In this document: one piece after another, positions 3,303-40,950 of the stretch
How positions within the stretch are numbered: position 1 is the stretch's first letter
How the letters are laid out: each line of letters begins with the position of its first letter
Source of the DNA: Minisyncoccota bacterium
GTDB lineage: Bacteria > Patescibacteriota > Minisyncoccia > Phycocordibacterales > UBA9973
DNA: 64,000 bases
Direction of reading: 5' to 3'
Assembly: GCA_041666045.1 (NCBI GenBank)
Contig: JBAYHR010000001.1
Coordinates: forward strand, 21,107 to 85,106
Made by a program: the position numbers and the translations under genes
Notes under the pieces: generated by a model
What the model was told of the DNA's origin: nothing
Seen by the model: the letters and a program-made list of their open reading frames with translations, nothing else
The model's database searches: none

Positions 3303-4343
3303 ATGAAAAAAATAACAAAATTTTTAATTTTCTTTTCAATATTAAGTATTTTTCTTTTGCCTAGTATTTCTTTTGCTCAAACTACATCTACTCTCACCAC
3401 TTCAGATCTCACAGCAACTTCCGTTACATTAAATGCAACTGGGTTAACTCCTAATCAAATATATAAATTTAAAATTAATGGAGCTTCTGGTTTAATTGAA
3501 CAGCAATTTACAGCAGATTCTACTGGTACGGGTAAGGTTTCTTTTGGATCTCCGAATTTTCATTTAGAAGTATATAGTGATTTTATTGCTTCGGTAAATG
3601 AATATAATCCTAATACAGGGATTTCATCAAATGCTATTGCCACTTTAAATTTTAAAACATTAGGAGTAAATCTTATTGTATCAGATATTACAAAAAATTC
3701 TGTTACTTTAAACGCAACTGGGTTAACTCCTTCTAGATTACATAAATTTGAAATTGTTGGAGCTTCTGGTTCTCCTACGCAAGAAGTTACAGCGGATGTT
3801 GATAGTAAGGCTAAGGTTACTTTTAATAATTTAGTTTCAGGACATAGTTATGCTGCTAGAGTATATCTTGTAGGATCTGAGACAATTGCCAGAGGTTATT
3901 TTGAGGTTTATTTTACAACATTAGCTTCAGATATTACTCCAATCCCAAACTCGAACCCAAATCCAGATCCCAATCAAAATTCAAGTTCAGACATAACTCT
4001 ATCATCTGGAAATACAAGTTCTGGCGGTGGTAGCAATTTAATTCCTTGTGGGACAACAGCTAATCCTACAGCTTGTGGATTTAATGATTTAATGAAATTA
4101 ATAAATAATGTGGTTAATTTTATTCTTTTTGATATGGTTGTGCCTATTGCGGCTATAATGTTCGCTTATGCTGGTATTCTCCTTATATTTTCTGGTGGTG
4201 ATACTTCCAAGAGATCTAAAGCAAAAAGTATATTTATCAATGTTGCCATAGGATTTATTATTGCAATCGCAGCTTGGCTTATAGTTGAATTTATATTGAA
4301 TCTATTAGGCTATGATAAGACTTGGGATTGGTTTGGCTTTTAA
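3303..4343 (+). CDS. secreted protein with two ~110-aa tandem Ig/FN3-like repeats and a C-terminal pilin-like two-TM domain
   Basis: Signal peptide ending SFAQ. Internal duplication (SVTLNATGLTP...GASG occurs twice). C-terminal hydrophobic-charged-hydrophobic domain is shared with the four downstream small ORFs. Confidence 0.55.
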   Translation: MKKITKFLIFFSILSIFLLPSISFAQTTSTLTTSDLTATSVTLNATGLTPNQIYKFKINGASGLIEQQFTADSTGTGKVSFGSPNFHLEVYSDFIASVNEYNPNTGISSNAIATLNFKTLGVNLIVSDITKNSVTLNATGLTPSRLHKFEIVGASGSPTQEVTADVDSKAKVTFNNLVSGHSYAARVYLVGSETIARGYFEVYFTTLASDITPIPNSNPNPDPNQNSSSDITLSSGNTSSGGGSNLIPCGTTANPTACGFNDLMKLINNVVNFILFDMVVPIAAIMFAYAGILLIFSGGDTSKRSKAKSIFINVAIGFIIAIAAWLIVEFILNLLGYDKTWDWFGF

Positions 4344-4432
4344 AATAGTGTATAATTGATATACTTGTCCCGTTAGAAATTTAATAAGCGGGAGAATAAA
4401 ATAATATGAAAAAAATTAAAATTTCTAATGGG

Positions 4433-4843
4433 ATGAAATTCATTAAGAAAAATCTTTTTGCAATAATTTTATCAATCATTGTTATTTCTGTGCCAATTTT
4501 ATCTTTTGCGCAGAATGGTACAAATGCAATTGGAACAGGAAATGGCACAAATGCTACGGGAACAGGTGGTCTTTCCTCAACGATTGTTAACCCAATAGGA
4601 GTTACAAGCATAACTGGCTTAATTAAAACAATTCTACAAGCTGTCATAAAACTAGGAATACCAATTGTTGCGTTGGCAATAATTTATTGCGGTTTTCTTT
4701 TTGTGAAAGCCTTGGGAAAACCTGAGGAATTAAAAAAAGCAAAAGACGCTTTATTATACACAGTTATAGGCGCGGCAATTTTACTGGGTGCTTGGACGAT
4801 CGCCCAGCTTATATCAGATACAGTTTTAGAAATAGCTAAATAA
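4433..4843 (+). CDS. small secreted/membrane pilin-like protein, paralog 2 (T4SS-pilin/VirB2-TrbC-like architecture)
   Basis: Start chosen at the ATG directly after the conserved hairpin arm; the track ORF starts at 4406. Signal peptide ends SFAQ. C-terminal IPIVALAIIYCGFLFVKALGKPEELKKAKD...ILLGAWTI forms a two-TM hairpin. Confidence 0.5.
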   Translation: MKFIKKNLFAIILSIIVISVPILSFAQNGTNAIGTGNGTNATGTGGLSSTIVNPIGVTSITGLIKTILQAVIKLGIPIVALAIIYCGFLFVKALGKPEELKKAKDALLYTVIGAAILLGAWTIAQLISDTVLEIAK

Positions 4844-4848
4844 AATTT

Positions 4849-5253
4849 ATGAAGATAAATAAAATAAAATATTTTGCATTTGTTATAGTTATGTTTTCTT
4901 TTTTATATATGCCAAGTATTTCTTTGGCTCAACAACAACCTGAACAATCTAGTTCAAGGGGTGTTTTATGCAGTTTAGTTTCAAGTCCAAAATTGGGAGA
5001 TTTATTAGGTTATATTACTTGTATTATTAGCAAGTCTGTAATTCCTTTAATTTTTGCTTTAGCTATTGCTTCTTTTATTTGGGGAGTTGTGCAGTATGTA
5101 ATAAATAATGATGATGAAGCAAAAAAAGCAAAAGGCAAGATGTTTATGATCTGGGGAATTATAGCTTTGACAGTGATGGTTTCTGTTTGGGGATTGGTAA
5201 GTATTTTGGGAAATACTTTTGGAATTCTTAATGTAATACCGCAACTTAAATAG
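4849..5253 (+). CDS. small secreted/membrane pilin-like protein, paralog 3
   Basis: Signal peptide ends SLAQQ. C-terminal WGVVQYVINNDDEAKKAKGKMFMIWGIIALTVMVSVWGLV motif. Confidence 0.5.
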   Translation: MKINKIKYFAFVIVMFSFLYMPSISLAQQQPEQSSSRGVLCSLVSSPKLGDLLGYITCIISKSVIPLIFALAIASFIWGVVQYVINNDDEAKKAKGKMFMIWGIIALTVMVSVWGLVSILGNTFGILNVIPQLK

Positions 5254-5372
5254 TAATCCACATAGGTGTGATTTTGTCTTATCTTTATGGTATAATACAA
5301 AAAGCTTAATAAATTTAGGCAAATTATTATTAGTTTTAAGGTCGCTCAATTATTATTAATTATTAAAAAAAT

Positions 5373-5747
5373 ATGAAAAATAAATTAGCTATTTTATCTG
5401 GTTTTGGATTAGTTTTTGCTCCATTATTAGCTTTTGCTCAACAATCAAATGGTTGTGTCAATGCAATACCTGGAACAATACAAAAGGTAATCTGTACAAT
5501 AGGAAATATTTTAGATACTGTTATTCCAGTTCTTATTGTTTTAGGAATCGTATATTTTGTTTGGGGAGTTGTTCAGTATGTAATGGCTTCTGAAGAAGAG
5601 GCAAAGAAAGTAGGAAGAGAAAGAATGATATATGGTATTATTGGTTTAGTTGTTATTGTAGGTATGTGGGGTCTTGTTGGTATTGTTACTAATACTTTCA
5701 ATTTGTCTGGTACTACAACATATACTATTCCAACAAGTCCTTTCTAG
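5373..5747 (+). CDS. small secreted/membrane pilin-like protein, paralog 4
   Basis: Signal peptide ends AFAQQ. C-terminal WGVVQYVMASEEEAKKVGRERMIYGIIGLVVIVGMWGLV motif. Extended -10 TGGTATAAT upstream. Confidence 0.5.
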   Translation: MKNKLAILSGFGLVFAPLLAFAQQSNGCVNAIPGTIQKVICTIGNILDTVIPVLIVLGIVYFVWGVVQYVMASEEEAKKVGRERMIYGIIGLVVIVGMWGLVGIVTNTFNLSGTTTYTIPTSPF

Positions 5748-5753
5748 TAATAT

Positions 5754-6095
5754 ATGGATTTATTTTTTACAAATATTGCTTACGCGAGCGTAGATTCTGT
5801 TATATCAAAGATTAATACGCTTATAATAAATCCGCTCATTATTTTGCTTTTTGCTTTAGCATTAATGTATTTTCTTTATGGTGTATTTGAATTTCTTTCA
5901 AATGGAGATAATGAAGAAAAAAAGACAACTGGCAAGAAGCATATGATTTGGGGTATTGTTGGACTTACTGTTATGATGGGTGTTTGGTTTATTCTTGGAG
6001 TGATTTTAGATACTTTCAATATAACCGGAATAAATCCTCAGGAGGGAACTGTTCAATTAGATGAATATAATCCTTCATATCCGCAAGTAAAATAA
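5754..6095 (+). CDS. small membrane pilin-like protein, paralog 5
   Basis: Same C-terminal motif: NGDNEEKKTTGKKHMIWGIVGLTVMMGVWFILGV. Confidence 0.45.
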   Translation: MDLFFTNIAYASVDSVISKINTLIINPLIILLFALALMYFLYGVFEFLSNGDNEEKKTTGKKHMIWGIVGLTVMMGVWFILGVILDTFNITGINPQEGTVQLDEYNPSYPQVK

Positions 6096-8911: not shown

Positions 8912-9661
8912 TTATTCGTGTTTTAATGGTGTTTCTTTATATTTTTCATCTTTTTTGTAAGCTTTCCTGAATAATATAACTCCTAAGAAAACTAAGACTA
9001 AAAGCATAAGCCATTGAATGAAACTTTTTGGCATAAATCCATTGTCACCGAATATTGCATTAGCTGCGAGATTACTATTGTTCTTTTCTCTGTCGTTAAA
9101 GGTTATAGAATTTGAAGTACCTCCACCTGGAGCAGGGTTAAATACGGTTATGGTAATTGGCTTACCACTGGATAAATCTTCTTTTGTTAAATCCATTGTA
9201 AGGATAGTAGACTTAAAACGATTAACTCCATTTATCTTTTCGTAGACATAATTAGTAGTTCTATTTTCACCATTTACTCTGCCTATTGATCCAACTATGA
9301 ACTTTGATCCAGTGACAGTGATAGTTATTACTTCAGTATTTGCGGGTGCTTTGGAAGGGGATATTTGAGAAATAGTAGGTACAGGATTAAGGTATGTTTG
9401 AGTATTTGTGTTTGTATTGTTTGTATTATTGTTTGTATTATTGTTTGTATTATTGTTTGTATTATTATTGTTCGTATTGTTTGTATTATTATTGTTTGTA
9501 TTTGGAGAAATATGATTATAATCATTTGGATCAAAAGTACTTCCTGAATTAACTGTAACAGTACAATTAGTACAAGCAAAAGCTGGTAATGCAAAAGAAA
9601 ACCCAAAAATAAAGACTAAAATTGCGGGAAGGGATATTAAGTTTTTATTTATTTTATTCAT
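8912..9661 (-). CDS. surface-anchored secreted protein with Asn/Thr-rich tandem repeat and C-terminal TM anchor
   Basis: Real start is the MNKINKNL methionine at 9661. The track ORF extends to 9775 only by running through tRNA-Leu. Signal peptide present. NNTNNN repeat is encoded by a 12-nt tandem DNA repeat. C-terminal hydrophobic anchor followed by KKDEKYKE. Confidence 0.5.
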   Translation of the reverse strand: MNKINKNLISLPAILVFIFGFSFALPAFACTNCTVTVNSGSTFDPNDYNHISPNTNNNNTNNTNNNNTNNNTNNNTNNNTNNTNTNTQTYLNPVPTISQISPSKAPANTEVITITVTGSKFIVGSIGRVNGENRTTNYVYEKINGVNRFKSTILTMDLTKEDLSSGKPITITVFNPAPGGGTSNSITFNDREKNNSNLAANAIFGDNGFMPKSFIQWLMLLVLVFLGVILFRKAYKKDEKYKETPLKHE

Positions 9662-9667
9662 ACTGGT

Positions 9668-9696
9668 ATGATAGCATGTTTGAAAATAAATGTCAA
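9668..9696 (-). promoter_or_regulatory. strong promoter TTGACA-N17-TGCTATCAT, leaderless or near-leaderless
   Basis: Minus-strand sequence ACACTTGACATTTATTTTCAAACATGCTATCATACCAGTA followed directly by ATG. Member of a three-copy module; see 17498-17526 and 18296-18325. Confidence 0.55.
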
Positions 9697-9699
9697 GTG

Positions 9700-9781
9700 T
9701 GCTGGAGGAGGGACTCGAACCCTCAAGCCTTGCGGCACTAGTTCCTAAGACTAGCGCGTATACCAATTCCGCCACTCCAGC
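9700..9781 (-). tRNA. tRNA-Leu (anticodon TAG)
   Basis: Manual cloverleaf: acceptor GCTGGAG/CTCCAGC, anticodon stem CTAGT/ACTAG, loop CTTAGGA, long variable arm, T-loop TTCGAGT. Confidence 0.85.
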
Positions 9782-9832
9782 ATATTAAAATATTTAAGTT
9801 AAAAAATTTAAATAATAAAATTTTTTAACTTG

Positions 9833-9906
9833 TGCGCCCTGAAGGGATCGAACCTTCGACCTTATCCTTAAGAGGGATCTGCTCTACCAGCTGAGCTAAG
9901 GGCGCA
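9833..9906 (-). tRNA. tRNA-Lys (anticodon CTT)
   Basis: Acceptor GCGCCCT/AGGGCGC, D-arm GCTC-AGCTGGTA-GAGC, anticodon loop CTCTTAA, T-loop TTCGATC. Confidence 0.85.
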
Positions 9907-9924
9907 TAATATTATTTAATTTTG

Positions 9925-10006
9925 TGCCCGGAGTGGGAATCGAACCCACATCCCTTGCGAGACACGATTTTAAGTCGTGCGCGTATACCAGTTCCGCCAT
10001 CCGGGC
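9925..10006 (-). tRNA. tRNA-Leu (anticodon TAA)
   Basis: Acceptor GCCCGGA/TCCGGGC, anticodon stem CACGA/TCGTG, loop CTTAAAA, long variable arm, T-loop TTCGATT. Confidence 0.85.
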
Positions 10007-10047
10007 ATTGCAGAAGATTTATGTATTATAACAAAAAATCTTCTTTG

Positions 10048-10119
10048 AGGCCTGGGCCGGAATTGAACCGGCGTATATTCCTTTTGCAGAGGAATGCCTT
10101 ACCACTTGGCTACCAGGCC
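10048..10119 (-). tRNA. tRNA-Cys (anticodon GCA)
   Basis: Acceptor GGCCTGG/CCAGGCC with discriminator U, anticodon stem TTCCT/AGGAA, loop CTGCAAA, T-loop TTCAATT. Confidence 0.8.
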
Positions 10120-12548: not shown

Positions 12549-13703
12549 ATGAAGAAATCAAAGAAAATTTATTTAGATTATGCTTCAAGCGCTTCAGTAG
12601 ATTCTGCAAATCCGGGTGCAATACATGAATTGGGAATAAAAGAAAAAAGTAAATTAGAAAATGCTAGAAAAAATGTAGCAGATGTTTTAGGCGCGCATTC
12701 TGATGAAATAGTTTTTACATCAGGGGCTACTGAAAGTAATAATTTAGCTTTAATGGGAGTAATAGAAAAAATATCTCAAACATTTTTTCCTCATATTATT
12801 ATAACAAACATAGAACATGCTTCAGTGCTTGAAGTTTGTAAACATTTAGAAAAAACAAAACAAGCTGAAGTGACTTATGTGCCAGTTGAAGAAAATGGAA
12901 TAGTTGATCCTAAGAAAATTAAGAAAGCTATAAAAAAAAATACTATTTTAGTTTCTGTAATGTATGCTAATAATGAAATTGGAACAATACAACCAATAGG
13001 AGAAATTGCAAAAGAAATTAGATATTTTAGAAAACATAAAACGTCAATCTTTCCTTTGTTTCATACAGATGCTACACAGGCTATAAACTATTTGCTAATA
13101 AAAGTTGAGAAGCTTGGAATTGATTTAATGTCTTTTAATGGAGCAAAAATTTATGGGTCAAAAGGTGTTGGAGTTTTGTATGTAAAAAGAAAAACACCAA
13201 TTAGTTCTATTATGTTTGGAGGAAATCAAGAGTTTGGATTAAGACCGGGGACAGAAAATGTGGCTGGAGTTGTTGCATTAAAAGATGCTTTACAAGTTGT
13301 AGAAAAAATAAAAGAAAAAGAAGTAAAGCGTCTTACAAAACTTAGAGATTATTTTTTAGATCAATTAAACTATTCTAAAATTCTAACGAATTATAGAATA
13401 GTTTTGAATGGCGATTTAAAAAATAGATTACCTAATAATATAAATATCACAATTCCTAAAATTCCCAGCGATCTTCTGGTTTTAGAACTTTCGGCTCGCG
13501 GAATTTATATTTCTGAAAAAAGCGCTTGTAAATCAGGTGATGGGAAAGCTTCAGGTGTTATAAAAGCAATTAATCCAAATGGAAATGAAAATGATGGATC
13601 TTTAAGATTTTCGTTGGGGAGACAAACAAAAAAGACAGATATTGATTATACGATTAAGTCTTTAAAAGATATTTTGAAAAAATTAAAAAAATGGTATGAT
13701 TAG
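12549..13703 (+). CDS. cysteine desulfurase (class V aminotransferase, NifS/IscS-like)
   Basis: PLP-lysine region SFNGAKIYGSKGVGVLYV. Conserved active-site loop SEKSACKSGDG. Confidence 0.8.
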   Translation: MKKSKKIYLDYASSASVDSANPGAIHELGIKEKSKLENARKNVADVLGAHSDEIVFTSGATESNNLALMGVIEKISQTFFPHIIITNIEHASVLEVCKHLEKTKQAEVTYVPVEENGIVDPKKIKKAIKKNTILVSVMYANNEIGTIQPIGEIAKEIRYFRKHKTSIFPLFHTDATQAINYLLIKVEKLGIDLMSFNGAKIYGSKGVGVLYVKRKTPISSIMFGGNQEFGLRPGTENVAGVVALKDALQVVEKIKEKEVKRLTKLRDYFLDQLNYSKILTNYRIVLNGDLKNRLPNNINITIPKIPSDLLVLELSARGIYISEKSACKSGDGKASGVIKAINPNGNENDGSLRFSLGRQTKKTDIDYTIKSLKDILKKLKKWYD

Positions 13704-13710
13704 GGTATGG

Positions 13711-13832
13711 ATCCCGTTAGAAGTCTCTCAGTTAATTGAAGTTGCGGGAAGTACCATAAAGAATATATTTCTATAGTCGTTATTAATAAATTAACTACGG
13801 AAATCTAAAGATTTCCTACTTCTAACGGGATG
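13711..13832 (+). promoter_or_regulatory. 5' leader hairpin element, variant copy (CCCGTTAGAAGT ... ACTTCTAACGGG-ATG)
   Basis: 12-bp inverted repeat separated by about 90 nt. The 3' arm ends at ATG 13830. ATGGAT flanks both arms. Confidence 0.5.
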
Positions 13833-14378
13833 GATTTAAAAGAACTAAACAAATCACAGCTTATATTATTAGCAATATTATTAAGTTTTGTAACTTCTAT
13901 TGCTACAGGGATAACAACTGTGACATTAATGCAACAAGCTCCTTCGTCAGTGACTGTGCCTATTAATCGTATTATTAGACAGACTGTTGAAAAAATTGTT
14001 CCAGTAGATACTGTATCTAATAATCAAATTTTATCGGAAGATCAAAAAAAATTACTTGAAGAATTGAAAGCAATTAAACCACTAACTGTAAGTTTATTTT
14101 TGAAAGGAGAAAAAGAAGATAAAATTCTCGGAACAGGATTATTTTTAGGTGACAATAAAGTTGTTATAGCATCTCTTATTGAACCACCAAAAGAAGGTGA
14201 GCAGTATGTAGTTAAAAGTGTTTTAGGTGAACAAAAGGTATCAAAGGTAACACAAGAAAAAGATTTTACCATTATTGAATTAATTGAAGTTGATACTGTT
14301 CCTGTTGTTGATACTACTATTTCAACTACTGACACAACGACAGACATTATAGTTCCACCAGTTGTTCCAACACCATAA
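13830..14378 (+). CDS. membrane-anchored protein with Thr/Val/Pro-rich C-terminus
   Basis: N-terminal TM LILLAILLSFVTSIATGITTV. C-terminal low-complexity TTISTTDTTTDIIVPPVVPTP. Confidence 0.4.
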   Translation: MDLKELNKSQLILLAILLSFVTSIATGITTVTLMQQAPSSVTVPINRIIRQTVEKIVPVDTVSNNQILSEDQKKLLEELKAIKPLTVSLFLKGEKEDKILGTGLFLGDNKVVIASLIEPPKEGEQYVVKSVLGEQKVSKVTQEKDFTIIELIEVDTVPVVDTTISTTDTTTDIIVPPVVPTP

Positions 14379-27574: not shown

Positions 27575-27675
27575 TTTTAAAAAAAAGTATAGAAATAGAG
27601 GACCTATGTTTACGAAAGTAAATATGGGTCTTTTTTTATTTGTATAAATCATTAGTACAAGTTATAATATAAACA

Positions 27676-27747
27676 CTTGTCCCGTTAGAAATTCGACTGA
27701 CGTGGAATAAGTATAAGAATTATTAATTTAAAATTTCTAATGGGATG
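27676..27747 (+). promoter_or_regulatory. 5' leader hairpin element (ACTTGTCCCGTTAGAAATT ... AAATTTCTAATGGG-ATG)
   Basis: 13-bp stem, about 37-nt loop. TATAAT box 6 nt upstream of the 5' arm. The 3' arm abuts ATG 27745. Near-identical to 31089-31160. Confidence 0.55.
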
Positions 27748-31085: not shown

Positions 31086-31088
31086 TTA

Positions 31089-31160
31089 CTTGTCCCGTTA
31101 GAAATTCGACTGACGGGCAATAAAGATAAAATTATTAATATTTAAATTTCTAATGGGATG
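31089..31160 (+). promoter_or_regulatory. 5' leader hairpin element (ACTTGTCCCGTTAGAAATT ... AAATTTCTAATGGG-ATG)
   Basis: Same stem as 27676-27747. Loop begins with the shared CGACTGACG motif. The 3' arm abuts ATG 31158. Confidence 0.55.
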
Positions 31161-36870: not shown

Positions 36871-37485
36871 ATGAGTGATGAAGAAATAAAAAAATCTGAA
36901 AATATAGAAGAAATTCCTGTTTCTCCTGAAGAAGTTGATTCTGAGGTTGTAGAATTTGAATTTAATGATGATGGGGAAGAGGATTTAAAGAAGACCCTAA
37001 AGAAACTTAGAGCTGATTTAAAAGTTTGTAGAAAAGAAAAGGAAGAGTATTTAACTGGTTGGCAGAAAGAGCGAGCAGAATTTGCTAATTATAAAAAACA
37101 AGAAGAAGACAGAAAAGCAAACTTTTCGGAAGGCTTGCGAGAAAGAATACTTTCAAGATTTCTTACTGTTATAGATAGTTTCAATATGGCTTTTGCAAAT
37201 AAAGAAGGCTGGGAAAAAGTTGATGAAAATTGGCGTAAGGGTGTGGAATATATTTATACGCAGATGAATAATATTTTTGAAGAATATGGAGTAAAACCAG
37301 TAGGAGAAATAGGGGAATCTTTTGATCCAAGCATGCATGAATCAATAGAAATGGTACCAACTGATAAAAAACAAGATGATCATAAAGTTTCTCAAGTGGT
37401 TCAAAAAGGTTACAAATTAGGCGATCGCATTATTCGTCCAGCTAGGGTGAATATATTTGAATATAATGAATCAGCAGGAAAGTAG
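36871..37485 (+). CDS. grpE: nucleotide exchange factor GrpE
   Basis: Coiled-coil N-terminus. C-terminal GESFDPSMHESIEMVP...GDRIIRPARV. Confidence 0.8.
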   Translation: MSDEEIKKSENIEEIPVSPEEVDSEVVEFEFNDDGEEDLKKTLKKLRADLKVCRKEKEEYLTGWQKERAEFANYKKQEEDRKANFSEGLRERILSRFLTVIDSFNMAFANKEGWEKVDENWRKGVEYIYTQMNNIFEEYGVKPVGEIGESFDPSMHESIEMVPTDKKQDDHKVSQVVQKGYKLGDRIIRPARVNIFEYNESAGK

Positions 37486-39124
37486 AAATTGTGAACACTG
37501 TAATCAAAAATTCTCAATATCTGAGGGTGAATTATCTTTATATAAAAAAGTTGGTATTGAACTGCCAACAATATGTTTCTTTTGTAGAGTAAAACAACAT
37601 TTATCTTTTTGGATGTTTGGAAAATTTAGAAAAGGGAAGTCGGATCTTTCGGGAGAAAGTTTGATTACAGTTTTACCAGAGAAAAATAGATATCCTATTT
37701 ACACATTGCATGAATGGCACAGTGACGCGTGGGACGCTATGGATTATGGTCAAGATTATGATTCATCAAAATCATTTTTTACTCAATTACAAGAACTTCA
37801 AGAAAAAGTTCCTCATTCTCATCAAAATGGTGCTAAAAATACAAATTGTGATTGGTGCGATGATGTATGGAATTCAAAGAATTGTTATTTATCACGTTCT
37901 ATGGAAACGTGTGAAGATTTATATTATTCATACAGAAATTTATGGGTGAAAAATTCAATTGATGTATCAGTTTGTTTTTATTCAGAGAAATGTTTTGATT
38001 GCGTAAATTGTTATAATTCTTACAAATTATTTTATTCTAGGAATTCCAAAGATTGCATTGATTCATATTTTTTACAGGATTGCAGAAATTGTCAGAATTG
38101 TTTTATGTGTTGGAATCTCAGGGGTAAATCATATTGTATAGAAAATATTCAATACACCAGGGAAGAATATTTAGAAAAATTAAAAACTTTTAAGCTTCAT
38201 TCGTATAATTCAATTCAGAAATATAAAAGACAGTTAGACAAAATAGCTCAAAACGAAGTAGTTCACAGAGAAAATTTTAATCTCAAAACTTATAATTCTG
38301 ATGGAGACAATTTAACTAACACAAAAGACTGCTACAATTGCTTTACAATTAATGATTCTGAAGATAGCTATAATTGTATTAGGGGAATGAAACAAAAATC
38401 AGATATTGATACTAATGGTTGTTGGTATTCTGAATTATTAGGCAATTGCAGTTGTTGTCTAAACAGTTATGCAGAAAAATATAGCGTGTGGTCTTCGTCT
38501 AGATATTCTGAGTATTTAGATTTATGCATAGAATGTGAATATTGTTTTGGTTGCGTAGGTTTAAAAAAGAAAAAATATTGTATTTTAAATAAACAATATG
38601 AGAAAGTTGAATATGAAAAACTTCGTGAACAAATTATTTCAGATATGAAAAAGCAAGGTGAATATGGCAAGTTTTTGCCTTATTCTATGTCCGCCGGACC
38701 ATTCAATTTTTCTACTAGTTTTTTGTATTTTCCAGATGTTAAAAAAGAAGATATTTTGAAACTTGGTGGTTATTGGGAAGATATCAACGAAAGCCACATA
38801 GATGGAATGCCCACAAGTGAATTACCTGATTCTATAAATGACGTATCCGATGATATTTGCTCTAAGGCTCTTATTTGTCCTGCCACTGGTTGGCGTTTTA
38901 ATATCGCTCAAAATGAGCTTTCTTTTTATAGAGAAAACAATATTCCATTACCGAGATATCATTTTGATGTACGAATAAAAGATAATATGAAATATACAAC
39001 TGTTTTACAAGCTTATCCTTATAAATGTTTTTATTGTAAAAAAGATATAAATGCATATTATCCACCAGAATGGGAATATAAAAAAATAGCTTGCGAAGAA
39101 TGTTATAAACAAAATATAAGTTAA
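37457..39124 (+). CDS. large cysteine-rich protein, paralog A (zinc-ribbon-like termini, internal duplication)
   Basis: 555 aa with dense CxxC / CxNCxNCFxC motifs. Two internal copies of C..CFGCV.L....YCI.NKQY.KEEY. N- and C-terminal E.EL.FY.....LP..C..C modules. Confidence 0.5.
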   Translation: MNIMNQQESRNCEHCNQKFSISEGELSLYKKVGIELPTICFFCRVKQHLSFWMFGKFRKGKSDLSGESLITVLPEKNRYPIYTLHEWHSDAWDAMDYGQDYDSSKSFFTQLQELQEKVPHSHQNGAKNTNCDWCDDVWNSKNCYLSRSMETCEDLYYSYRNLWVKNSIDVSVCFYSEKCFDCVNCYNSYKLFYSRNSKDCIDSYFLQDCRNCQNCFMCWNLRGKSYCIENIQYTREEYLEKLKTFKLHSYNSIQKYKRQLDKIAQNEVVHRENFNLKTYNSDGDNLTNTKDCYNCFTINDSEDSYNCIRGMKQKSDIDTNGCWYSELLGNCSCCLNSYAEKYSVWSSSRYSEYLDLCIECEYCFGCVGLKKKKYCILNKQYEKVEYEKLREQIISDMKKQGEYGKFLPYSMSAGPFNFSTSFLYFPDVKKEDILKLGGYWEDINESHIDGMPTSELPDSINDVSDDICSKALICPATGWRFNIAQNELSFYRENNIPLPRYHFDVRIKDNMKYTTVLQAYPYKCFYCKKDINAYYPPEWEYKKIACEECYKQNIS

Positions 39125-39165
39125 TACATATATACGCTATAGCGTATATATGTAAATTAAAAAAA

Positions 39166-40950
39166 ATGAGCAAAAACAATGAAAAAAGAATATGCCAAAA
39201 CTGTAAAAAAGATTTTGTTATAGAACAAGAAGATTTTAACTTTTATGAAAAAATAAAAGTCCCAGCACCAACTTGGTGCCCAGAGTGTAGGTTAATAAGA
39301 AGATTAGCTTATCGTGAATCTAGACCTTTGTATAAAGATATTTGTGATAAATGTGGGGAGGAAATTATAAGTATTTTTGCAGAAAATTCTGAAATTATAG
39401 TTTATTGTAGTTCCTGTTGGTGGGGAGATAGCTGGGATGCAATGGATTATGGAAAAGATTATGATTTTTCTAGACCTTTCTTTGAACAATTTTATGAATT
39501 ACAAAAATTAGTACCTCGTGAAGCTACTGGTCAAAAAAATTCTGAAAATTGTCAATATTCCAATGGTGATGTTCGTTGTAAAAACTGTACTTTAACTTTT
39601 GATTGTCTTGAGGCTATTAATTGTTATAATTCTCAAATTGCCATATTTTCTAAAGATTCAATAGATTCAGATAGCGTTATGAATGCTGATCATACTTATG
39701 ATAATTTGTGTTCAAATGGTATTTATAATACAAAATTTATTTATTATTCTGATGAATGTCTTGATTGCTCTTTTCTTTTTTATTGCTTAGGGTGTACAAA
39801 TTGTTTTGGTTGTGTAAATTTAAGAAATCAAAAATATTGTATTTGGAATAAACAATACACAAAAGAAGAATATAAAAAAGAAATTGAGAAATGGGATTTG
39901 GGTAGTTATAAAACTATACAAAAAGCAAAGGAAAAATTTATGGAACTTTATTATAAAATTCCAAGGCGTTTTGCTTTTATAACAAATTCCATTAATGTTA
40001 CTGGAGAAGATATTATAAATAGTAAAAATTGCAAAAATTGTTTTTTTACTAGGCATGGAGTAGAAAATTGTAAATATATTTTTTCATGTGGTTTGCTCTT
40101 AAAAGATAGTTATGACGCTACTTTTGGAGGAGATAAATCAGAAATATTTTATGAAACAAATGGCGGAATGCAATCCCAAAGATGTTTTTTTAGTCGTGCA
40201 CCTAATGGTTCTAAGGACATAGAATATTCCGATAGAGTTTTTAACTGTTCTAATTTATTTGGTTGCGTAAATTTGAGAAATAAAAGTCATTGTATTTTTA
40301 ATAAGCAATATACTAAAGAAAAATATTTTGAAATGGTAGAAAAAATAAAAAGGCAAATGAATGAAATGCCATACATTGATAGAATGGGCAGAATTTATAA
40401 ATATGGAGAATTTTTTCCTAGTGAGTTGTCCCTATGGGCATATAATAAAAGCTGGGGACATGAATTTTTTCCATTAAACAAAGAAGATATTTTAAAAAGA
40501 GGATTTAATTGGCAGGACGACCCCAAAAGAGATTATGAAATAACTATTAAATCAAAAGATTTACCTGATCATATTAATGATGTTTCAGATGATATTTTAG
40601 ATGAAGTAATAGAATGTGAACATAATGGAAAAGATTGTAATCAGCAATGCACTACAGCTTTTAGGATTTTACCGAATGAATTGCAATTTTACAGGCAGAT
40701 GAATTTAGCTTTACCAAGGTTATGTCCAAATTGTCGCCACTATGAACGAATTAAAAAAACAAACCCACCAAAACTTTGGCATAGAAAGTGTATGTGTAAT
40801 GGCGTAGAATCAAGCAATAAGGAATATAAAAATACTATTAAACATTTTCATGGAGATAAACCATGTTCCAATGAATTTGAAACTGCTATAAGTGATGAAA
40901 GAAAAGAGATAGTGTATTGTAAAGAATGTTATCAAGCTGAATTTATATGA
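39166..40950 (+). CDS. large cysteine-rich protein, paralog B
   Basis: 594 aa. Same architecture as 37457-39124: CTNCFGCVNLRNQKYCIWNKQYTKEEY and CSNLFGCVNLRNKSHCIFNKQYTKEKY. Confidence 0.5.
   Translation: MSKNNEKRICQNCKKDFVIEQEDFNFYEKIKVPAPTWCPECRLIRRLAYRESRPLYKDICDKCGEEIISIFAENSEIIVYCSSCWWGDSWDAMDYGKDYDFSRPFFEQFYELQKLVPREATGQKNSENCQYSNGDVRCKNCTLTFDCLEAINCYNSQIAIFSKDSIDSDSVMNADHTYDNLCSNGIYNTKFIYYSDECLDCSFLFYCLGCTNCFGCVNLRNQKYCIWNKQYTKEEYKKEIEKWDLGSYKTIQKAKEKFMELYYKIPRRFAFITNSINVTGEDIINSKNCKNCFFTRHGVENCKYIFSCGLLLKDSYDATFGGDKSEIFYETNGGMQSQRCFFSRAPNGSKDIEYSDRVFNCSNLFGCVNLRNKSHCIFNKQYTKEKYFEMVEKIKRQMNEMPYIDRMGRIYKYGEFFPSELSLWAYNKSWGHEFFPLNKEDILKRGFNWQDDPKRDYEITIKSKDLPDHINDVSDDILDEVIECEHNGKDCNQQCTTAFRILPNELQFYRQMNLALPRLCPNCRHYERIKKTNPPKLWHRKCMCNGVESSNKEYKNTIKHFHGDKPCSNEFETAISDERKEIVYCKECYQAEFI

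Follow-up and report, generated by a model that had tools for sequence, protein, structure and literature searches.

A widespread hairpin element on gene starts of ultra-small bacteria and its probable insertion into a start codon

Bacterial MITEs, such as the Correia/NEMIS elements of Neisseria, MITEAba12 and the Rickettsia palindromic elements, are small and non-coding, have terminal inverted repeats (TIRs) and a target-site duplication (TSD), and are present in many copies per genome, polymorphic for insertion and transcribed into hairpin RNA next to genes. The RAYT-mobilised REP and REPIN sequences are short, abundant palindromic hairpins with stem-keeping covariation; REPINs carry a conserved GTAG head, lie between genes and make no target duplication. 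The IS1380 family has ends that start with CC and a duplication of 4 to 5 bp. In the bypass elements of T4 gene 60 and of Magnusiomyces mitochondria (byps), a hairpin insert stands in the reading frame, accompanied by matching codons, and the mitochondrial byps are themselves thought to be mobile. As to position, typical MITEs are intergenic, and the Rickettsia palindromic elements lie in frame inside genes (PMC10969869); the words "start codon" do not occur in the text of that review of bacterial MITEs. For piggyBac, the target is the 4-bp sequence TTAA, with TAAA, TCAA and TATG as reported variants, excision is seamless, and the prokaryotic relatives are the IS1380 family (PMC7351741, PMC10813416).

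The sequence described here resembles bacterial MITEs in each of the features listed above. Unlike them, it has ends that are identical across many Patescibacteria classes, Omnitrophota and Planctomycetota, rather than within one genus or family; its copies are placed on start and stop codons, and the duplication rebuilds the codon; and no parent IS is known for it. It was analysed within a stretch of 64,000 nucleotides (the window; positions count from its first letter) of contig JBAYHR010000001.1, Minisyncoccota assembly GCA_041666045.1. We consider it very likely that this sequence is a non-autonomous, hairpin-forming, MITE-like transposable element that landed on a start codon and rebuilt it.

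The element at 13712-13830 and its empty sites

The initial annotation saw an element bracketed by ATGGAT, read the two hexamers as a target-site duplication around inverted repeats, and took the second for the start of the downstream gene. The hexamer does occur at 13707-13712 and again at 13830-13835 (ggtATGGATcccgttagaagt…acttctaacgggATGGATtta), and the second copy opens a 182-aa ORF: the N-termini of 1187 homologues align at MD(L/V/I)K, the window reading MDLKEL…. The geometry also stands, but the duplication is really 4 bp long (TGGA), not 6. The inverted-repeat ends include the T of the left hexamer and the A of the right hexamer, so the 6-nt match consists of the duplication, the element ends and one native base per side. 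The arms are CCCGTTAGAAGT (13713-13724) and ACTTCTAACGGG (13818-13829); the TIR is perfect over 13 bp and, with the outer bases, the inverted repeat runs 14 bp (ATCCCGTTAGAAGT/ACTTCTAACGGGAT), so that the stem takes in the AT that closes the left ATGGAT and the AT that opens the right one. The interval originally delimited, 13711-13832, runs from the outer AT of this stem to the ATG. The locus comprises the following features.

12549-13703, plus strand: upstream gene, class-V aminotransferase / cysteine desulfurase-like (ORF and domain search)
13707-13739, plus strand: relic start codon and 10-codon upstream ORF (uORF), MDPVRSLSVN-stop, which enters the left arm (read from the sequence)
13708-13711, plus strand: left copy of the TSD, TGGA, 4 bp (empty sites have A-TGGA-T once)
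13712-13830: inserted element, 119 bp, T-CCCGTTAGAAGT…ACTTCTAACGGG-A, non-coding and hairpin-forming
13712-13724, plus strand: left TIR, TCCCGTTAGAAGT (sequence; covariation across family copies)
13745-13749, plus strand: internal CGGGA motif, a partial copy of the right end (…CGGGA) (sequence)
13799-13816, plus strand: internal hairpin GGAAATC-TAAA-GATTTCC adjoining the right arm, the hallmark of a sub-family (fold)
13818-13830, plus strand: right TIR, ACTTCTAACGGGA (sequence; covariation across family copies)
13831-13834, plus strand: right copy of the TSD, TGGA, which is bases 2-5 of the gene (same basis as the left copy)
13830-14378, plus strand: target gene, encoding a 182-aa membrane-anchored protein of unknown function (ORF; the ClpB gene is next downstream)

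The last base of the right TIR, A13830, is also the first base of the working start codon. At the other end, A13707 and the left TGGA form the relic of the original start codon, with an upstream ATG at 13707; the accidental 10-codon uORF is the only coding content of the 119-bp element. The 182-aa protein has no Pfam match.

The predicted RNA fold of the element has a free energy of -37.2 kcal/mol, with z-scores of -3.2 to -4.0 on the plus strand and -4.45 on the minus strand. The two-arm pattern is found four times in the window (4369, 13713, 27681 and 31094) and never in 100 shuffles; when two mismatches per arm were allowed, the same four copies alone were recovered, against a shuffle mean of 0.5. 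At the Rfam gathering score, the whole window yielded five tRNAs and no other match, which excludes a curated riboswitch, leader or ribozyme, and a permissive Rfam scan of 13650-13900 gave best sub-threshold matches of 17-20 bits with E about 1. BLAST of the element against phage and plasmid collections returned no match. Other repeats of the window include a 12-nt unit similar to TGTTTGTATTAT, repeated about nine times at 9391-9502 (some repeats have 15 or 9 nt), within a long minus-strand ORF (8912-9775) and just upstream of a tRNA cluster (9699-10119), and two adjacent large paralogous proteins with repeated Cys-rich segments (repeat families D3 and D8) at 37457-40950.

Comparison with an empty site in related genomes had been proposed as a check, and such sites exist. 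Orthologous loci share the order IF-2 / DUF4446 / aminotransferase / gene / ClpB, and 10 of 12 distinct loci lack the element while being otherwise collinear base for base. In the window the aminotransferase stop TAG (13701-13703) lies 3 nt ahead of the relic ATG, and this stop-nnn-ATG junction is also present in the empty loci, where ATGGAT is single (…TAG-nnn-ATGGATTTAAAAGAA). Indeed, L258, L134/135, L136, L132/133, L259/260, L261/263, L262 and L264/265 all have a single …TAG/TAA/TGA-nnn-ATGGA(T/C)…. The nearest relative, L258 (93% amino acid identity, 83% at third codon positions), is among the empty loci: it reads …tggtatgatTAGtatATGGATTTAAAAGAACTAAAC, with the junction …aaaaaatggtatgatTAGtatATGGATTTAAAAGAACTAAAC, where the window reads …aaaaaatggtatgatTAGggtATGGAT-element-ATGGATTTAAAAGAACTAAAC, and the flanks are almost base-identical between the two. 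The filled allele is …gatTAGggtA-TGGA-[T…A]-TGGA-TTTAAAAGAA.

The only other filled orthologous locus, L137, carries at the same site a copy that is 90% identical to that of the window, against only 57% identity between the two at third codon positions of the adjacent gene. The element is therefore either younger or more constrained than its flanks. Moreover, with two of 12 loci filled at a single site, either the site is a hot spot or an old insertion has repeatedly been lost without a trace. At L262, about 1425-1495, a different palindromic insert (GCCCGGTAGTGAGTTTTGGCAAGG…CATTGCCAAAATCTACTAACCGGG) lies upstream of the orthologous 186-aa gene; it interrupts the end of the aminotransferase gene, beside GGTAT/TAT, and is absent from the near-identical L261. 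It may represent a second, related hairpin-element family with a CCCGNTAG head.

The element is non-coding, shorter than about 500 bp and bounded by TIRs, its TSD has a characteristic length, copies are dispersed, and sites are filled or empty in related genomes. Structurally it qualifies as a MITE in all respects but the parent element, of which none is known.

Ends, targets and codons across the family

More copies with direct repeats, the other check proposed in the initial annotation, are found at hundreds of loci in other genomes and metagenomes. A scan of GTDB species genomes with exact arms (CCCGTTAGAA…TTCTAAYGGGATG) matched at least 120 stretches; its pattern demanded GGGATG and is biased towards start codons. 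A second scan, of metagenomes, was run without the ATG in the pattern, again matched at least 120 stretches, and supplied an unbiased sample of 130 copies. The GTDB matches listed comprise 134 copies from about 108 different assemblies, counted by accession prefix. Among the matches listed, hosts include Paceibacteria and Parcubacteria lineages, Saccharibacteria, and Kaiser-, Levyi-, Kerfeld-, Doudna- and Moranbacteria, with Omnitrophota and some Planctomycetota MAGs outside Patescibacteria. The family is thus very widespread across ultra-small candidate phyla bacteria, on gene starts. Searches of the literature on the arm sequences, candidate-phyla MITEs, MxPVR N-termini and leaderless translation in Patescibacteria did not return a description of it, and it appears to be undescribed, although absence from the literature is no proof.

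Copies range from 27 to 134 bp and have the ends (T/C)CCCGTTAGAA…TTCTAACGGG(A/G). The ten terminal bases are identical in the listed matches across phyla with 28-55% G+C, which is unusually strong conservation for a selfish repeat; the G+C labels in the MAG names run from about 30 to 59. In a set of 175 copies, positions 1-10 were set by the search pattern; beyond these, arm positions 11 and 12 covary with the opposite arm in 96-97% of the matches listed, and the outer T pairs with A in 171 of the 175 listed start-codon copies. The sub-family with the internal hairpin (n=12) has the compensatory variants GAGAATC/GATTCTC and GGAAGTC/GACTTCC; nine of its members are oriented to the gene as in the window and three are inverted (L026, L084, L087).

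The unbiased sample defines the unit of insertion. In 124 of the 130 copies listed, CCCG…CGGG is bordered by complementary bases (C..G in 84, T..A in 38), and the next 4 nt form an exact direct repeat in 81 of these 130, where 13 are expected. Counted with their reverse complements, the duplicated 4-mers are TAAA/TTTA (32), TGAA/TTCA (29), TCAA (8) and TGGA/TCCA (6); the target consensus is T-N-N-A, and TTAA accounts for just one of the 81 exact repeats. Complementary end bases followed by a 4-nt repeat indicate a unit X-CCCGTTAGAA…TTCTAACGGG-X' with a 4-bp T-N-N-A duplication, and hence the parse of the window locus as A13707, TGGA (13708-11), T13712…A13830, TGGA (13831-34) and then T. A duplication of 5 or 6 nt plus a T was ruled out on these grounds. 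Of the 175 non-redundant start-codon copies listed, 102 repeat 4 nt after the A, 10 repeat 3 nt and 3 repeat 5 nt; a further 19 have a repeat with a single mismatch.

The GTDB copies agree with this unit. An NTG lies six bases upstream in 87 of the 134 listed, and in 80 of these 87 the two bases after it are those that follow the downstream ATG. In 2000 shuffled pairings the mean was 28 and the maximum 41, which rules out a chance origin. Duplications also occur away from ATG (ATTGAT/ATTGAT, ACTAAT/ACTAAC, CCATG, TTAAC). Site-specific integration with a fixed core was dismissed, and no guide-like link between arm extension and target 4-mer was seen in the copies compared.

Further signs of mobility come from individual loci. 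A 27-nt mini-copy with a 3-nt interior is nested in another copy in L107, with a TTAAC repeat, and L109 has another nested pair; L017 has a tandem pair with three ATGAAY copies. One MAG (L083, L098) carries three roughly 95%-identical copies at different genes, with the duplications TGAA and TGCG, and both orientations relative to the gene occur in the family.

The position of the copies with respect to codons is equally regular. Of the 38 T..A-ended copies listed in the unbiased sample, 36 lie directly against the ATG of a real ORF. ORFs of 50 aa or more (median 238 aa) start at 92% of the ATGs that follow an element, versus 27% of random ATGs. C..G-ended copies at start codons have the form ATGAAC[E]GTGAA, in which ATGAA becomes a GTGAA start. 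For 22 of the 130 copies listed, a long upstream ORF has its stop codon within the duplication, as in gagTAAAC[E]GTAAAG; such duplications include ATGA overlaps, where the stop is kept in the left copy and the start in the right. A peak of -10 hexamers lies 6-7 nt before the relic ATG across the family (46 of 174 listed). The downstream genes are functionally unrelated (pilin, MgtC, RuvC-like, MurG, LepA and others). Family uORFs that start at the relic ATG have 6-47 codons and no conserved frame relative to the gene (46/22/20 by mod 3). Translational coupling through the uORF stop was rejected, since in the window that stop is 90 nt ahead of the gene and neither frame nor length of the uORF is conserved. 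A Shine-Dalgarno sequence right after C..G-type copies was likewise rejected as a general feature (18 of 88 only), and an outward promoter inside the element gave neither a positional peak nor a consensus match in the copies scanned.

Annotation of such loci is affected. In L173 (7246-8457, minus strand), MurG is called from the relic ATG as MNPVRN…, and other loci have MDPVRS…; copies of a length that preserves the frame are taken for N-terminal extensions, likely a systematic annotation artefact. Copies in L173 lie at the start or end of several consecutive genes.

On this evidence, the element entered the start region of the 182-aa gene at bases 2-5 (TGGA) and duplicated these 4 bp. As this sub-type ends in …GGGA, its terminal A and the duplicated TG rebuild an in-frame ATG for an intact gene; the original ATG is left behind and opens the short uORF. 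The initial annotation suggested that the element supplies a start codon, which is right for one base, the terminal A; the TG comes from the duplication. The family prefers T-N-N-A targets, and the copies that survive are placed where the duplication preserves a gene boundary, whether a start codon, a stop codon (TAAA) or an ATGA overlap. We infer that the distribution reflects target preference together with purifying selection in very compact genomes. In the window, a Shine-Dalgarno-like motif precedes 4 of 59 long ORFs, a TATAAT-like -10 box lies 5-8 nt before the ATG of 18 of the 59 genes (a leaderless arrangement), and most of the remainder have plain A/T-rich sequence upstream. The T..A-ended sub-type is presumably dominant in Patescibacteria because their genes are mostly leaderless or without Shine-Dalgarno sequences and need AUG. 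In the mRNA, the first two bases of the AUG are inferred to be paired within the 14-bp basal stem; the gene would probably be translated by Shine-Dalgarno-independent initiation, like its neighbours, and ribosomes on the uORF may help to open the stem.

Copies without a duplication and competing readings

Three shorter copies in the window, all on the plus strand, belong to a distinct subclass.

4363-4433, plus strand: ACTTGT-subclass copy before a T4SS-pilin gene (arm pattern; -10 box)
27675-27745, plus strand: ACTTGT-subclass copy before the MgtC gene (arm pattern; empty site in L266)
31088-31158, plus strand: ACTTGT-subclass copy before a gene for a 428-aa protein of unknown function (arm pattern)

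Each begins with ACTTGT exactly 6 nt past a -10 box, at the predicted transcription start; CCCG pairs with TGGG (G·U), and there is no flank duplication. Relative to the close relative L266, the MgtC copy is a 70-nt insert (ACTTGTCCCG…CTAATGGG) without duplication; the empty locus in L266 reads TTATAAT-ataagc-ATGACACAA, and none of L266-L269 has the insert ahead of MgtC. The predicted folds would sequester the entire start codon in two of the three copies, through pairing of UUGU with AUGA. Across the family, A-CYTG-T takes the place of the left duplication in 22 of the 175 start-codon copies listed, including three of the four in the window; these copies carry several different interiors, often with a G·U stem pair. 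CCCG·UGGG pairing is present in 12 of 23 listed ACTTGT-subclass copies versus 2 of 87 in the other class. The initial annotation also suggested that the leader family had spread as a mobile element. This is borne out for the copy at 13712-13830; the three short copies were inserted, but without duplication, and because of such insertions the simple MITE picture does not fully cover the short leader copies.

At 4406-4432, in the loop and 3' arm of the first copy, an ATG is in frame with the pilin (MKKIKISNG-MKFIKK…) and has GCGGGAGAA ahead of it, so that the true start of the pilin gene is ambiguous (4406 or 4433). Five paralogous T4SS-pilin-like genes (repeat family D4), two of them confirmed by Pfam, lie at 3303-6095. 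Eleven viral contigs have the arms without a duplication. In five related IMG/VR contigs (L121:1880-1970, L122, L123, L126 and L128), a 91-nt hairpin that has these 10-nt arms (CCCGTTAGAACG…CGTTCTAACGGG) lies between two genes without flank duplication, with GGAGG-N8-ATG inside it on one strand.

The interior of the element is oriented relative to the gene at about 10:1 (61 versus 6; 48 versus 5), and the ends are symmetric; the second count is that of internal YGGGA among 170 listed start-codon copies, 48 sense against 5 reverse complement. Such a bias implies selection or a strand-specific step beyond simple cut-and-paste. Together with the subclass that lacks a duplication and the viral arm copies, it suggests an RNA-level role layered on the mobile element; no functional data bear on this. 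A stronger form of this idea, that the family is a mobile pan-Patescibacteria module that adds start-codon-sequestering 5' hairpin leaders to leaderless or coupled genes, with the interior and the ACTTGT subclass as exapted regulators, is possible but in our judgement doubtful. Its most exotic version would have ribosomes from the relic AUG shunt or hop over the hairpin. A related reading, to which the same doubt applies, is that ultra-small bacteria widely harbour an active but unidentified piggyBac/IS1380-like enzyme that excises seamlessly.

We consider it improbable that the hairpin is instead a vertically inherited cis-regulatory RNA leader which sequesters the start codon, the ATGGAT repeat being incidental. 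Such a leader would account for the exact start-codon position and the stable basal stem, for the 10:1 orientation of the interior, and for an ACTTGT subclass that begins at the predicted transcription start with G·U pairs that exist only in sense-strand RNA. However, presence and absence differ between close relatives at both loci tested, and the flank repeats vary yet match in pairs, at non-coding sites and stop codons as well. Nested, tandem and inverted copies, functionally unrelated downstream genes and the lack of an Rfam family match also speak against it. As an exclusive explanation the RNA leader fails; as an added layer, mobile copies may act as leaders or have been co-opted as such.

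Still less probable is a programmed translational bypass, in which ribosomes initiate on the upstream AUG, leave the message at codon 2 and resume on the matching codon beyond the hairpin. The element does share with the known bypass elements a hairpin insert in a reading frame and matching codons: upstream and downstream AUG-NR agree in the 80 of 87 listed copies, with a stable hairpin between them, and many of the upstream AUGs still stand in their native promoter or coupling context. Unlike those elements, it is inserted after codon 2, its matching codons accompany a matching ATG, and many family copies have no usable take-off site. The target duplication fully explains the match, which extends to untranslated sites (TAAA, TTAAC, CCCGC), and the third codon position matches in only 31 of the 87 listed. 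Moreover, the upstream ATG has decayed in several copies (ACGCGT, ATAGAT, ATTCAT), the ACTTGT subclass precedes intact genes without having one, and neither a stop codon nor a conserved nascent-peptide signal follows the take-off site. Finally, an inverton, with the inverted repeats as recombinase crossover sites that flip the 90-bp interior, is scarcely credible: inverted repeats do surround a short segment by a gene start and a sub-family exists in both orientations, but the two orientations were seen at different loci, not at one, no sense or antisense promoter peak was found inside the element, inversion leaves the flank duplications and empty sites unexplained, and mini-copies with a 3-nt interior exist (L107).

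Candidate enzymes and significance of the family

For the mobile, MITE-like element that we favour, about 1.8 Mb of sequence from loci around small copies, the window's own genes excluded, yielded neither a transposase nor an autonomous copy. Arm pairs 0.4-5 kb apart with a matching duplication enclosed NusA, LepA, MurG and similar genes and no transposase, and long-range arm pairs without a matching duplication likewise enclosed ordinary genes only. As in piggyBac, the duplication is 4 bp long and fits T-N-N-A, and the ends are comparable to piggyBac ends that begin with CCC; the piggyBac end TTAA/CCCTAGAAAGATAGTC may be compared with TNNA/(C/T)CCCGTTAGAA(A/G)(T/C), exemplified by CCCGTTAGAAAGATTTG in L038, and the unbiased copies listed end in CCCC… or TCCC…. 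Seamless excision of the piggyBac type would fit the clean empty sites. Unlike piggyBac, the element has a degenerate target (TAAA, TGAA, TCAA, TGGA, TGAG) rather than TTAA, the first end base is T in the Patescibacteria sub-type, and no transposase of any kind was found near the copies in the loci searched. We therefore treat the putative resemblance of the ends and the 4-bp duplication to piggyBac/IS1380 as a lead only, not as membership.

With REP/REPIN sequences the element has in common that it is a short, abundant palindromic hairpin with stem-keeping covariation; unlike a REPIN, it has the head CCCG, a 4-bp duplication and copies on codons, and identity with REP/REPIN was ruled out by the duplication, the head and the start- or stop-codon position. 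An integron attC site was also rejected: the arms GTTAGAA…TTCTAAC, on both strands, are in the opposite order to RYYYAAC…GTTRRRY, and the neighbours are housekeeping genes.

What is new here is a widespread element variant, and its unusual property is the rebuilding of start codons. As a result, thousands of candidate-phyla genomes probably carry wrongly placed start sites and N-termini. Ends that do not vary from phylum to phylum suggest a transposase that has yet to be identified and may be seamless; such an enzyme could aid the genetics of bacteria that are hard to manipulate. One gene with and without a 119-nt hairpin at its AUG, in an organism that makes little use of Shine-Dalgarno sequences, amounts to a natural experiment on translation initiation, and cultivated Saccharibacteria are possible test organisms for the effect of the hairpin. 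For the family as a whole, the finding suggests how mobile DNA may persist in extremely compact genomes: by landing only where the duplication and the terminal base restore the start or stop codon.
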